Source: an archaeon
GTDB taxonomy: Archaea; Asgardarchaeota; Thorarchaeia; Thorarchaeales; Thorarchaeaceae
DNA: 64,000 nucleotides
NCBI GenBank assembly: GCA_024276825.1
Contig: JAJRWI010000004.1
Coordinates: 1 to 64,000, forward strand
Direction of reading: 5' to 3'
Position numbers and translations under genes: made by a program. Positions 3,512-16,187 of this stretch are shown here, piece by piece; position 1 is the stretch's first letter; the number at the start of each line of letters is the position of its first letter. The notes under the pieces were generated by a model that saw only the letters and a program-made list of their open reading frames with translations, did no database searches and was not told the DNA's origin.

Positions 3512-3591
3512 TTCAAATTCACCGCATTTTAGTCAGTCAACAAGGATTGCCCAAGACTTTGTTTATAAACAATATGGTGCATACTGTCTGA

Positions 3592-4195
3592 TTATGGATC
3601 ATATGGACCTTTTATCAGTTTCTTGATCAGTCTGAGAAGAAACGAAATCTCATTATTGGTCAAGTGTTCTAATGACTTCTCCAACTGTGTTAATGCTTCT
3701 GATTTGAAGGCGGTATATACCGTTCATTGTAAGTTGGACATTCTTGGACATCAGAGTCCAGTCCTTCCTGGAACGGCACAGGACTGCTTTTCTCCTGTAT
3801 ATGTCACACAATTTAAGCTCCTACATTTTTCAAGGGTTCTATCAAACATTTATTTGAAGAGTGTCCAAGTTTGTCCCATTTCTCAGCATCTGTGCACAAC
3901 CCTTCTTCCTCTTACAGTCATCTTAATTAAGATTCGCTGTCTGTCATCCTTCCACTTACTTCGAATGACATATTTCCTATCAACTAGCCTATCAACAAGA
4001 CCAGCGGCTGTGCTTGGGGGCATTGAAAATGTAGCAGTAATATCTTTCATTGAACAGCTTTCAGACTCAAATATTAGATTAAGAATCATGAATTCTTTAC
4101 GAGTAATCTTTGGAGATCCCAAAATGCCACTTTACCTTGCTTAACCGTCTAAGTGACTCGACAAGCTCATAAGTGAGTTCCTGGCGGGACTTCAT
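3592..4195 (-). pseudogene. MarR-family regulator pseudogene (paralog of 15765-16187)
   Basis: MKSRQELTYELVESLRRLSKVKW, then +1 frameshift near 4125, ...MTVRGRRV / 180-bp insertion / YTAFKSEALTQLEKSLEHLTNNEI; collinear with the intact copy. Confidence 0.9.
3720..3901 (-). mobile_element. Non-autonomous mini-element, copy A (GG-bounded)
   Basis: Removing 180 bp restores the MarR codons AGG GTA TAT; ends GGTTGTGCACAGATGC...TTACAATGAACGG; homologous to copies B and C. Confidence 0.85.
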
Positions 4196-12251: not shown

Positions 12252-12439
12252 CCACTCATTCTTAGCTCAATAGAGTTAGATATGCAGGTCTTACCCGCAC
12301 AGGAACCTCACTGGACCCGCTCGACACATGGTGTCCGACAGAACTATCTGAACTCACTACTATTTTTATCCAATTCGCTTTAGATCTTCTTTTTATTGCT
12401 ATTCGAGATCATCCAACCTCTACGCATCTCCGCGAAACC
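12252..12439 (-). mobile_element. Non-autonomous mini-element, copy C (most diverged)
   Basis: GGTTTCGCGGAGATGCGTAGAGGTTGGA...CAATAAAAAGAAGATCTAA...GTCCAGTGAGGTTCCTG...AAGAATGAGTGG, collinear with copy B. Confidence 0.75.
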
Positions 12440-12989
12440 CCTCTCCCCTAAACTTCTCATGGAACACTATTACGACCCCCCTGTAGAATGCCCTAATTTG
12501 CCCTGAAACATCGCATTTTTGCAGTGATACTAGCATGTTCTCAATATATTATCCCAGTGATATTAAGATAAGGTCTTCATTTTACCAAACCTTATATGGG
12601 AATTCAGTGGAAATAGAGGTGGGTTATATCACACATTCAAAATATAATGGAGAATTAAAGAATTGACCGAAAAATCCAGACCTCTCTCAACCCTGCAAAA
12701 GAAAGCTAAGATCCTGCATGTACTATACGGACTGCTCGAGAGCGACCGTGACCCTACAGATGAAGATGCTCAAAGTCTGCGATATCTCTATGCCAGCTCA
12801 TAATTATGCTCATCATTAGATGAGGTCATTCTTCTGTTCTCATGTCCCTCCCGGCGCGAGACGGAGGAAAAGTGAGGGCCGATTCCCCCTATGGCCCTCA
12901 CACCAACATCATGTCCTCTTTTAACAGTAATTTTGATTAGCCACGACATTAATGCCAGTTTGATAGAACTGCAGAGAGAGTTGGCCATT

Positions 12990-13060
12990 ATGAGTGAGAA
13001 TCCAGATGATTTTAGCTTTGATAATCTATCACGGAAACTGGAGGGTGCAATCGAACAGGG
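12990..13060 (+). pseudogene. Truncated N-terminus of an unknown gene family (copy 2), interrupted by element copy B
   Basis: MSENPDDFSFDNLSRKLEGAIEQG; matches 4420-4491. Confidence 0.6.
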
Positions 13061-13245
13061 TTGCGGGTAGATGCGCAGAGGTTGGACAAACTTGACACCA
13101 ATAAAAAGGACATCTAAGAGATATACTACAAAATTGTTAGGAGTTTAAATAGTATCATCAGGAACAATGGCGTGAAATGTGTCCACTGCTGTTCGTGGGC
13201 GGACAGGACTATAATGTCCAAGATCGTCCAATTTACAATGAACGG
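13059..13245 (+). mobile_element. Non-autonomous mini-element, copy B
   Basis: GGTTGCGGGTAGATGCGCAGAGGTTGGACAAACTTG...TGTCCAAGATCGTCCAATTTACAATGAACGG; homologous to copy A along its full length. Confidence 0.85.
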
Positions 13246-13270
13246 CATATCCGATAAACTAGTAAATGGT

Positions 13271-13630
13271 ATGATGAACGAACTTGAGCAGGATTATTTT
13301 GAAACCATCAAGCGAGCTAGGACTGCAATTGTGATGTTCTATAGAACTGCATGTTCGTATTGTAAGAGGCTGCGACCAGTCCATGAGGACTTTGCTGATG
13401 AGTTTGAATCATCAGTCTTTTTCACTACTGTGAACATTGATCTTGTAGATGAAGCTCGCATAAAGAACAACATCCTAGGAGTGCCGCTGGTAATCGCATT
13501 TAAGAAAGGAATGTCTGTAGATAGTGTCGAGGGACTTCGTTCAGCAGAAGAGTATCACAAGTGGATTGACCAGATTAGAAAGGGTCTAAGACCAATGCGT
13601 TTAGACCATGGTCAGGCAACCAAGTTATAA
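13271..13630 (+). CDS. Thioredoxin-family protein
   Basis: MFY..ACSYCK CxxC motif, GVP cis-Pro; the upstream part of ORF 13172 lies within element B. Confidence 0.85.
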   Translation: MMNELEQDYFETIKRARTAIVMFYRTACSYCKRLRPVHEDFADEFESSVFFTTVNIDLVDEARIKNNILGVPLVIAFKKGMSVDSVEGLRSAEEYHKWIDQIRKGLRPMRLDHGQATKL

Positions 13631-14652: not shown

Positions 14653-15639
14653 CTATTCACGATTTCTATAGTATGGTGACATTCTCAGTAAGCGTCTTCT
14701 TGCTATTGGCCTGAATAATCGTATAATATGACGCTTAAATCCAAGGGCTTCCCGTAATTCGTTCAGATAATCATCAAATGTGTGCTTCTGGAAATTCAGC
14801 AATTTCTGAGCCTCCAGCGTTTCCATGAAATCAGTATGAAACCAGTCCTCGTCGCGAACGGGTGTTAGAAATGCACTGTCAGGCAACATGCCAATGCCCG
14901 CGGTTTCAAGCATCCGCGACACAAAATCCCGATACTTCATTCTGCATTGTTCTCCACCACCGAGTAGCAATATTTTTCCCTCAGTGGGAGCAACGACCAC
15001 GTTTCGAAGGGCAAGTCCGAGATCTCTTGTGTGAATGAATTCCAGTCGCTGTTCTAGAGGAATATTAAACATCATGGAACTCATTTCCTGTTGCAGCCAT
15101 CGCTCGCCCAAAGGAGGTACTACACCAAATCTCAGAATTGTCCATGGCAAGCCACTCTCCCTCACTTGGCGCTCGCACTCAATCTTTGTCTTTGTGTAGT
15201 TATCAGTCACGACTTGAGGATCATTGGCAGTTTTTGGTGGGCCATTCCCCTTGTTATGGCCATAGGTGGCAATGGAACTGGCATAGACAAACTTTGGGTT
15301 CAGACCTGTTTTCTTACTCTCCTCTAGTAATGACTTTGTGCCCTCAACATTTACTGCCCATGCTAGGTCTGGCTTACTCTCGGACAGAGGAGGAATAATT
15401 GCGGCCAAATGGATTATGCAATCGATGTCTTGGACTATCTCATGGACAATGTCCCTGTTTCTAATGTCCCCCCATACAATCTCGAACTTGCCCCTCTTAG
15501 AGAGTTCTCTTGCGACTTTGTCCGTCATGGGGTTTTTAATATCAAAGCATCGTAACTGATGCTCGCTTCCCAGAAACGATATTACCGCACTCTCACCCAC
15601 ATTTCCAAATGCGCCGGTCAATAGAACTCTCATGTTCAA
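14653..15639 (-). CDS. NAD-dependent epimerase/dehydratase (extended SDR)
   Basis: TGAFGNVG, HLAA, YTKTK (YxxxK). Confidence 0.9.
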   Translation of the reverse strand: MNMRVLLTGAFGNVGESAVISFLGSEHQLRCFDIKNPMTDKVARELSKRGKFEIVWGDIRNRDIVHEIVQDIDCIIHLAAIIPPLSESKPDLAWAVNVEGTKSLLEESKKTGLNPKFVYASSIATYGHNKGNGPPKTANDPQVVTDNYTKTKIECERQVRESGLPWTILRFGVVPPLGERWLQQEMSSMMFNIPLEQRLEFIHTRDLGLALRNVVVAPTEGKILLLGGGEQCRMKYRDFVSRMLETAGIGMLPDSAFLTPVRDEDWFHTDFMETLEAQKLLNFQKHTFDDYLNELREALGFKRHIIRLFRPIARRRLLRMSPYYRNRE

Positions 15640-15664
15640 TTTTAAAAAACCATGGATATATAAT

Positions 15665-15682
15665 TATTTCGCAAACGAAATA
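15665..15682. promoter_or_regulatory. Candidate MarR operator in the divergon
   Basis: TATTTCG-caaa-CGAAATA, conserved in the duplicate at 4263-4280. Confidence 0.6.
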
Positions 15683-15764
15683 TTCAATAACGAAAATTTC
15701 GAAACAGAAACATATCTATTCGATAGACCTATATTCCACAATTATTCTGAATAACTGGCTCAAA

Positions 15765-16187
15765 ATGAAGACCAGGCAAGAACTCACCTACGAACTAATC
15801 GAGTCGTTAAGACGTCTGAGCAAGGTGAAGTGGTTTCTAGGCTCCTCAAAACTCACTCTTGAGGAGTTCATGGTTCTCGACCTTATCTACGAGTCTGAGA
15901 ATTGTTCTATGAAAGACATCACGACTACTTTCTCAATGCCCCCAAGTACTGCCACAGGCCTTGTGGATCGACTTGTTGAAAGAAAGTATGTCACACGTAG
16001 CAAGTCCAAAGATGACAGAAGACGAATTCTCATCAAGATGACTACAAAGGGCAAGAGGGTATATACAACTTTCAAGTCTGAAGCACTGGCTCAACTGGAA
16101 GAATCATTGAGTCATTTGTCTAATAACGAGATTGCAACTCTTCTTAAACTAATAAACAAGTTGATTGATGGACTTCACGAATCGTAA
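15765..16187 (+). CDS. MarR-family transcriptional regulator
   Basis: STATGLVDRLVERKYVTR..DDRR wHTH motif; start inferred from the paralog. Confidence 0.9.
   Translation: MKTRQELTYELIESLRRLSKVKWFLGSSKLTLEEFMVLDLIYESENCSMKDITTTFSMPPSTATGLVDRLVERKYVTRSKSKDDRRRILIKMTTKGKRVYTTFKSEALAQLEESLSHLSNNEIATLLKLINKLIDGLHES

Follow-up and report, generated by a model that had tools for sequence, protein, structure and literature searches.

The window analyzed here is the first 64,000 nucleotides of contig JAJRWI010000004.1 (forward strand) from a genome assembly of the family Thorarchaeaceae (GCA_024276825.1; 2.9 Mb, 82 contigs, 98.3% complete). It contains three copies (A, B, and C) of a short gene-less repeat with a structured right end, and copy B ends shortly before a thioredoxin-like ORF. 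The features discussed below are as follows (window coordinates).

3720..3902, minus strand: copy A, a member of a young subfamily, inserted in a MarR-like pseudogene
12252..12440, minus strand: copy C, decayed, with a weak hairpin and a broken pseudoknot
13058..13245, plus strand: copy B, an IS607-type miniature element of ~188 nt (target G 13058; core GG 13059-13060; element proper 13061-13243; core GG 13244-13245), with sharp homology boundaries against ~45 genomic copies and in the alignment of 26 full copies
13082..13098, plus strand: left-end subterminal TTGGAC repeats, inverse of the right-end GTCCAA and conserved in the copies, the second repeat being eroded in copy B
13141..13152, plus strand: TATA-like box GAGTTTAAATAG, a candidate promoter kept from the parent tnpB and moderately conserved among copies
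13181..13200, plus strand: nexus-like hairpin, stem 13181-13186 with 13195-13200, loop TGCTGTTC at 13187-13194
13201..13229, plus strand: second helix, formed by GGACA 13201-13205 and CGTCC 13225-13229 around a small inner hairpin, GGAC/GTCC, at 13206-13219
13240..13245, plus strand: pseudoknot 3' strand GAACGG, whose partner in the loop is CTGTTC 13189-13194; this strand closes the element and contains the GG crossover
13246..13265, plus strand: predicted locus-specific guide flank, assigned from its position as in IS607 omega RNAs (10.1101/2023.11.20.567912)
15609..16187, plus strand: intact MarR-like paralog (192 aa), a proxy for the empty site of copy A (...AGGG↓TATATAC...)

Copies of the miniature element in the genome

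The first-pass annotation of this DNA had marked three related copies in the window, and all of them proved to be real members of a genomic family. BLAST of the unit against its own genome yielded ~45 matches, nearly all of which share both end positions, and a covariance model of the right-end module detected 54 copies in the genome, three of them in the window (copy B, 13177-13245, plus strand, 84 bits; copy A, 3720-3788, minus strand, 80 bits; copy C, 12252-12320, minus strand, 24 bits). The three-copy pattern in the window is far beyond chance. The 26 full copies that could be aligned are 146-190 nt long. Pairwise identity among copies has a median of 76%, and copy C is 63% identical to its nearest relative; the subfamily of copy A comprises three copies at 97-99% identity, which points to recent movement of some copies. 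Copies C and B are arranged head-to-head, with their left ends facing each other and 617 bp apart.

No clean empty site was found in genomes of the same genus, whose DNA is only ~70% identical and rearranged, and the MarR-like paralog was therefore taken as a substitute. Virtual excision of copy A at GG restores the reading frame of its host gene as ...RVYTAFKSEAL..., for which the paralog has ...RVYTTFKSEAL, and the comparison gives AGGG↓T as the insertion site. The MarR-like gene that hosts copy A (3560-4160, minus strand) is also frameshifted upstream and is thus a pseudogene.

Element ends of the IS607 type

In the alignment of the 26 full copies, the left end reads (G)GG-TTGCGCGTAGATGCGTAGAG and is followed by two TTGGAC repeats, while two GTCCAA repeats precede the right end, ...TTTACAATGAACGG. 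These subterminal repeats are presumed to be binding sites of a serine transposase. GG is present at both junctions, the target is NGGG↓T, and neither a target duplication nor a terminal inverted repeat accompanies the insertion. T precedes GGG in 12 of 26 copies, and the right end is followed by T or C in 45 of 46. Multiple subterminal repeats bound by TnpA, crossover at GG, a (G)GG target, the lack of duplication, and a serine recombinase are all known from the IS607 family (PMC6188088), and the Clostridium botulinum IStron likewise has a core GG, the TAM TGGG, and a scaffold ending in ...UCGG (10.1101/2023.11.20.567912). Judged by its ends, the miniature element is a non-autonomous IS607-type derivative, i.e., a MITE. 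It resembles other MITEs of IS elements in being a short internal-deletion derivative with both ends, present in many dispersed copies and presumably mobilized in trans; unlike the usual ones, it has no terminal inverted repeats and makes no target-site duplication, which follows from a parent that is a serine-recombinase element of the IS607 type.

Further evidence for such a parent comes from a 571-bp derivative (G000:C81:166258-166828, minus strand) that has kept the left and right ends of the MITE. Inside it, the start of an IS607 tnpA (helix-turn-helix plus YARVSS) is fused to the last ~50 codons of a tnpB, whose stop codon falls within the conserved right end. This derivative is the sole trace of the parent element's genes in the assembly: the only TnpA associated with the MITE ends is this truncated one, and a resolvase-domain search of the whole assembly gave no matches, so that an intact serine transposase was not found genome-wide.

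Structure and covariation of the right end

Covariation was analyzed in an alignment of 69 different right ends, of which 27 belong to this genome and 42 to relatives, intact elements among them. Three parts were modelled: a 6-bp hairpin with an 8-9-nt loop (UGCCGUUC), a GGACA/UGUCC helix around a variable small hairpin, and a 6-bp pseudoknot between the loop bases CCGUUC and the last six bases, GAACGG. In the hairpin, helix 2, and the pseudoknot taken together, 91.7% of cells are paired. Cells with changes on both sides numbered 74, compared to 22 ± 8 in shuffles, and none of 500 shuffles reached 74; when the partner was shifted by one to three columns, pairing fell to 28-48%.

The first-pass annotation had proposed a stem with compensatory changes around a conserved loop in each of the three copies. 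Both the hairpin and GAACGG lie at the positions given above in copy B, and CCTG-TGCCGTTC-CAGG and GAGCTTAAATTG are present in copy A. In copy C, CAG-TGAGGTTC-CTG could be confirmed, but the pseudoknot is broken in this decayed copy. The stem covariation itself extends well beyond the window, with both-side changes at four of the six stem pairs across the 69 sequences. Helix 2 is 93.3% paired, and three of its five pairs have changed on both sides (e.g., GCACA/TGTGC and GGGCA/TGCCC in relatives); because its 3' strand overlaps a GTCCAA repeat, part of this conservation may be at the DNA level. The pseudoknot is 93% paired in the 69 sequences. Its inner pair occurs as C:G in 49 sequences, G:C in 8, U:G in 6, and U:A in 3, and its terminal pair as C:G in 54 and U:A in 5. 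A maximum-likelihood tree of 22 nuclease sequences shows at least three independent occurrences of the G:C state (L080, the L073 clade, and L064), and the terminal U:A pair was observed in L070 (but not in its sister L069) as well as in L068 and L072. Single mismatches occur in some intact elements, such as CCGCUC with GAACGG or a terminal C·A, and many MITE copies carry uncompensated changes in the pseudoknot or stem (e.g., CCATTC against GAACGG), as would be expected from copy decay.

Two further pairings had been suggested for this region. An 8-bp pairing of the loop with the right junction is retained in part: the pseudoknot comprises six base pairs, a seventh is possible (flank position +1, the T or C in 45 of 46 copies mentioned above), and the eighth is at chance. 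The alternative pairing AGTCC/GGACT, on the other hand, did not hold up, as it is 70.7% paired versus 68.8% in shuffles with no covariation, and the partner of its GGAC strand is the GTCC further downstream. Single-sequence minimum-free-energy folding gave ordinary energies for the three window copies (z from -0.8 to -1.3); such folding is uninformative here, since a nested fold cannot show the pseudoknot and the z-scores are weak. The module had no match in Rfam at gathering score or E<=10, a look-up that does not bear on its defining features.

Association with a large TnpB-like nuclease in related genomes

Of 24 related genomes belonging to this family, 15 contain the last ~63 nt of the unit; 16 genomes taken from the phylum's other families gave no match. 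In these relatives, the module often lies directly 3' of a ~700-740-aa gene with a Cas12f1-like/TnpB zinc-ribbon domain (PF07282); the right end overlaps the last codons of this gene and ends exactly at the transposon end, ...ACAATGAACGG. Of 61 family genomes covered by a protein search, 34 carry the TnpB-like gene, as a rule in several copies with 45-100% identity. All 19 full-length members share the RuvC D/E/D triad and four zinc-finger cysteines, and matches to solved structures are weak and involve Cas12f/TnpB-type chains in the RuvC/zinc-ribbon part.

A pseudoknot between the nexus stem-loop and the 3' end of the scaffold is a conserved and essential feature of omega RNAs (10.1101/2023.11.20.567912), which identifies the right-end module as an omega-RNA core. 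An omega-like RNA derived from the element's right end had also been anticipated from the window itself, and the relatives bear this out: the scaffold sits beside tnpB-like genes, overlaps their 3' ends, and stops at the right end of the element, and its loop/3'-end pseudoknot covaries. Therefore, we consider it probable (roughly 80%) that the right-end module of this gene-less IS607-type MITE is the 3' core of the omega RNA of a ~710-aa TnpB-like RuvC nuclease. The proposed scaffold would consist of the nexus-like hairpin, the second helix, a short linker, and the 6-bp pseudoknot of the loop with the last six bases, with the flank in the guide position. The initial reading as a stand-alone guide RNA thus appears right as to kind, and activity of the RNA in this organism is putative.

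The nuclease family (loci L054-L083) is unusually large for TnpB, as a region of ~480 aa precedes the RuvC core. It is also a multi-copy family in many Thorarchaeota genomes.

Candidate promoter and probable origin of the miniature element

The middle of the MITE can be aligned with the sequence that precedes tnpB in intact relatives. There, copy B and one relative (L059) share AGGAGTTTAAATAG without a difference, and other intact elements align with it as well. The TATA-like box noted by the first-pass annotation at 13141-13152 is indeed there and is homologous to the tnpB promoter of intact elements; in copy B, it lies 31-38 nt before the hairpin. With an archaeal start ~25 nt past the box, the RNA would begin with a short leader and continue through the scaffold into the flank. 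On the basis of this homology, each copy could be a small guide-RNA unit, and the suggestion of a mini transcription unit is supported as a design.

Most likely, the MITE is an internal-deletion product of a full tnpA-tnpB element. What would remain of this parent is its left end, the promoter and leader of tnpB, and the right end with the ~69-nt scaffold. A serine transposase acting in trans would excise the element and insert it at (T)GGG↓T, with crossover at GG. If active, the retained promoter would yield scaffold plus flank from each copy. A cognate TnpB could then use this RNA in trans and cut the vacated site, and repair from an occupied copy would restore the element. A role in element maintenance has been demonstrated for other TnpB elements. 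In this assembly, neither the cognate nuclease nor the transposase was found; the copies are therefore orphans, either relics or dependents of an element missed in assembly or binning.

Alternative explanations

A stronger form of the guide-RNA reading is that the copies are working stand-alone guides, i.e., the TATA box of each one drives an RNA that is taken up by a nuclease of this cell, either one encoded on an unassembled or unbinned replicon or a distant TnpB, so that the copies form a dispersed multi-guide system. The homology of the retained box to the tnpB promoter fits this, as do the compensated stems that differ between MITE subfamilies, the 97-99% identical subfamily (recent mobilization implies recent trans-acting factors), and the fact that stand-alone omega RNAs act in trans elsewhere. 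However, the partners were not found in the assembly. Using tblastn with the proteins of five relatives, we detected no cognate TnpB in the 98.3%-complete assembly, the only hit being a 50-60-aa C-terminal remnant on C81, and a cognate transposase was likewise missing. In addition, the median identity of 76% and the many broken pairs speak against a set of guides in current use. We consider this explanation unlikely. The distant TnpB-like gene mentioned above (G000:C24:45302-46951, 549 aa) was tried as the cognate effector and rejected: it has 24% identity over the nuclease region, no similar hairpin is found nearby, and its 3' region is unrelated. As a separate observation, this protein carries an acidic/serine-rich C-terminal tail of ~110 aa after its zinc ribbon.

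The element might also have been exapted as a portable promoter or structured 5' leader for host genes. The TATA box faces outward, copy B ends 25 nt before the ATG of a thioredoxin-like gene, and copy C ends near another gene start. The guide-position flank of copy B enters the thioredoxin-like ORF (CxxC motif; in-frame ATG at 13271), and at this distance read-through from the MITE promoter would enter the gene. Nevertheless, 37 copies examined with crude ORF calls showed no clear enrichment of a same-strand ORF start downstream: a start is found within 60 nt in 3 of 37 copies (3.9% at random) and within 400 nt in 16 of 37 (27% at random). Host-gene exaptation is therefore regarded as quite improbable.

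It could further be argued that the right end is conserved as DNA for the serine transposase alone and that the RNA structure is a by-product. The GG core is a transposase feature, as are the GTCCAA/TTGGAC repeats found at either end, and the C. botulinum IStron can be excised with ~60 bp of its right end (10.1101/2023.11.20.567912). However, a serine recombinase acting on double-stranded DNA gives no reason for compensation within the stem or between the loop and the last six bases, which are 45 nt apart. Both kinds of compensation are observed, with independent swaps in intact elements. Since the parent transposase acts on double-stranded DNA, these compensatory changes argue for selection at the RNA level, and a purely DNA-level explanation is very improbable.

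Finally, the structure could be a bridge RNA of an IS110 element, or a hairpin acting in single-stranded DNA for a Y1 transposase of the IS200/IS605 type. The first-pass annotation had raised a bridge-like RNA and action at the level of single-stranded DNA, and an IS110 gene does adjoin one copy; this alternative is largely refuted and keeps next to no probability, because the genome has no Y1_Tnp match, the left end has no IS200/IS605-type hairpin in the alignment of copies, the ends carry a GG core and a serine-recombinase remnant, and the structure is tied to TnpB genes in relatives. The single IS110 gene of the genome (G000:C81:172799-174511, minus strand; 450 aa, DEDD and Transposase_20 domains) is flanked by the two ends of one MITE copy, the whole measuring 1713 bp, and is read as a nested insertion into that copy, so that it lends no support to the bridge-RNA idea. 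Moreover, bridge RNAs come from the non-coding end of IS110/IS1111 elements and have two internal loops that match target and donor; the module has a single loop, whose partner is the 3' end of the module itself.

A 5' twin of the module in the tnpB genes of relatives

In the nuclease gene of 23 intact elements from the relatives, the first ~30 codons hold another hairpin. Its 8-nt loop forms a pseudoknot with the six bases that follow a conserved ACAAUG, and the whole looks like the 3' module. Examples, all outside the window, are as follows.

L059:1336-1550: 5' twin module
L060:3536-3750, minus strand: 5' twin module
L078:535-750: 5' twin module
L075:1380-1580: 5' twin module

This 5' module is 96.8% paired, and five of its six pseudoknot pairs change on both sides, giving variants such as CCAGUC/GACUGG, UCGUCC/GGACGA, UCAUUC/GAAUGA, and UCAUCU/AGAUGA. 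The bases that follow its pseudoknot, in the guide position, repeat a same-strand sequence 115-150 nt upstream, just before the TATA-like box of the element. The match amounts to 11-14 of 14 positions in 21 of 23 elements, with a mean of 12.5 versus 9.2 ± 0.8 for shuffled guides; a guide matches its own site at 12.8 of 14 positions and the sites of other elements at 6.2. It spans guide positions 2-13 or 2-15 (~13-15 nt), and the site is preceded by YTGN-T. The arrangement looks like a candidate for RNA-guided self-repression of the tnpB promoter, and our literature search found no paper on such self-repression for TnpB. A comparable design is known from Cas9 tracr-L and the CreR mini-arrays (10.1101/2023.03.10.532045), in which a scaffold-like RNA also has a partial match of ~13-15 nt to the promoter of its own effector. 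The module of the relatives differs in lying within the first ~30 codons of a transposon tnpB instead of a CRISPR locus, and it is absent as such from the window.

The twin module bears on the MITEs, as they look like the product of a deletion in which sequence shortly past the tnpB start was fused to the 3' module. It is conceivable, though rather doubtful, that this deletion took place between the look-alike 5' and 3' scaffolds of the parent element and made the MITEs self-contained, promoter-driven guide-RNA genes; with the operator kept, ~50 units would be expressed and repressed through the nuclease, with the effector residing outside the assembly. Were the operator indeed kept, the ~50 dispersed guides would form a multi-guide set under nuclease control.

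Relation to known systems and significance

As the core of an omega RNA, the right-end module agrees with that of the IS607 TnpB in the C. botulinum IStron (10.1101/2023.11.20.567912) in its right-end origin, the overlap with the 3' end of tnpB, and the nexus/3'-end pseudoknot, and also in the scaffold end ...CGG at the GG crossover, the (T)GGG target/TAM, and the flank in the guide position. In contrast to the IStron, the elements described here are archaeal (Thorarchaeota), lack a group I intron, and have a conserved core of ~69 nt. The nuclease has ~710-740 aa compared to ~400 aa for the typical TnpB of the experimentally studied literature, and this genome holds gene-less copies only. Stand-alone omega RNAs working in trans have already been described (PMC10691335, summarising Altae-Tran et al. 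2021), so the concepts remain unchanged. As outlined in that summary, they too are mobilized scaffolds without effector or transposase genes that take their guide from the local flank. The cases presented there share a genome with effector loci, whereas no cognate effector was found here, and, unlike the stand-alone omega RNAs it describes, the unit in this genome keeps the tnpB promoter right before the scaffold.

For annotation, ~50 repeats of this genome are explained as IS607 miniatures. The fusion of the promoter of a nuclease gene directly to its scaffold represents a natural design, and such compact scaffolds, together with the TAM-like (T)GGG target, could be of interest for genome editing. 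Above all, the analysis provides a covariation-backed secondary structure, comprising the ~69-nt core and its pseudoknot, for the probable guide RNA of a large and poorly characterised TnpB-like family that is common in Thorarchaeota of the Asgard group.
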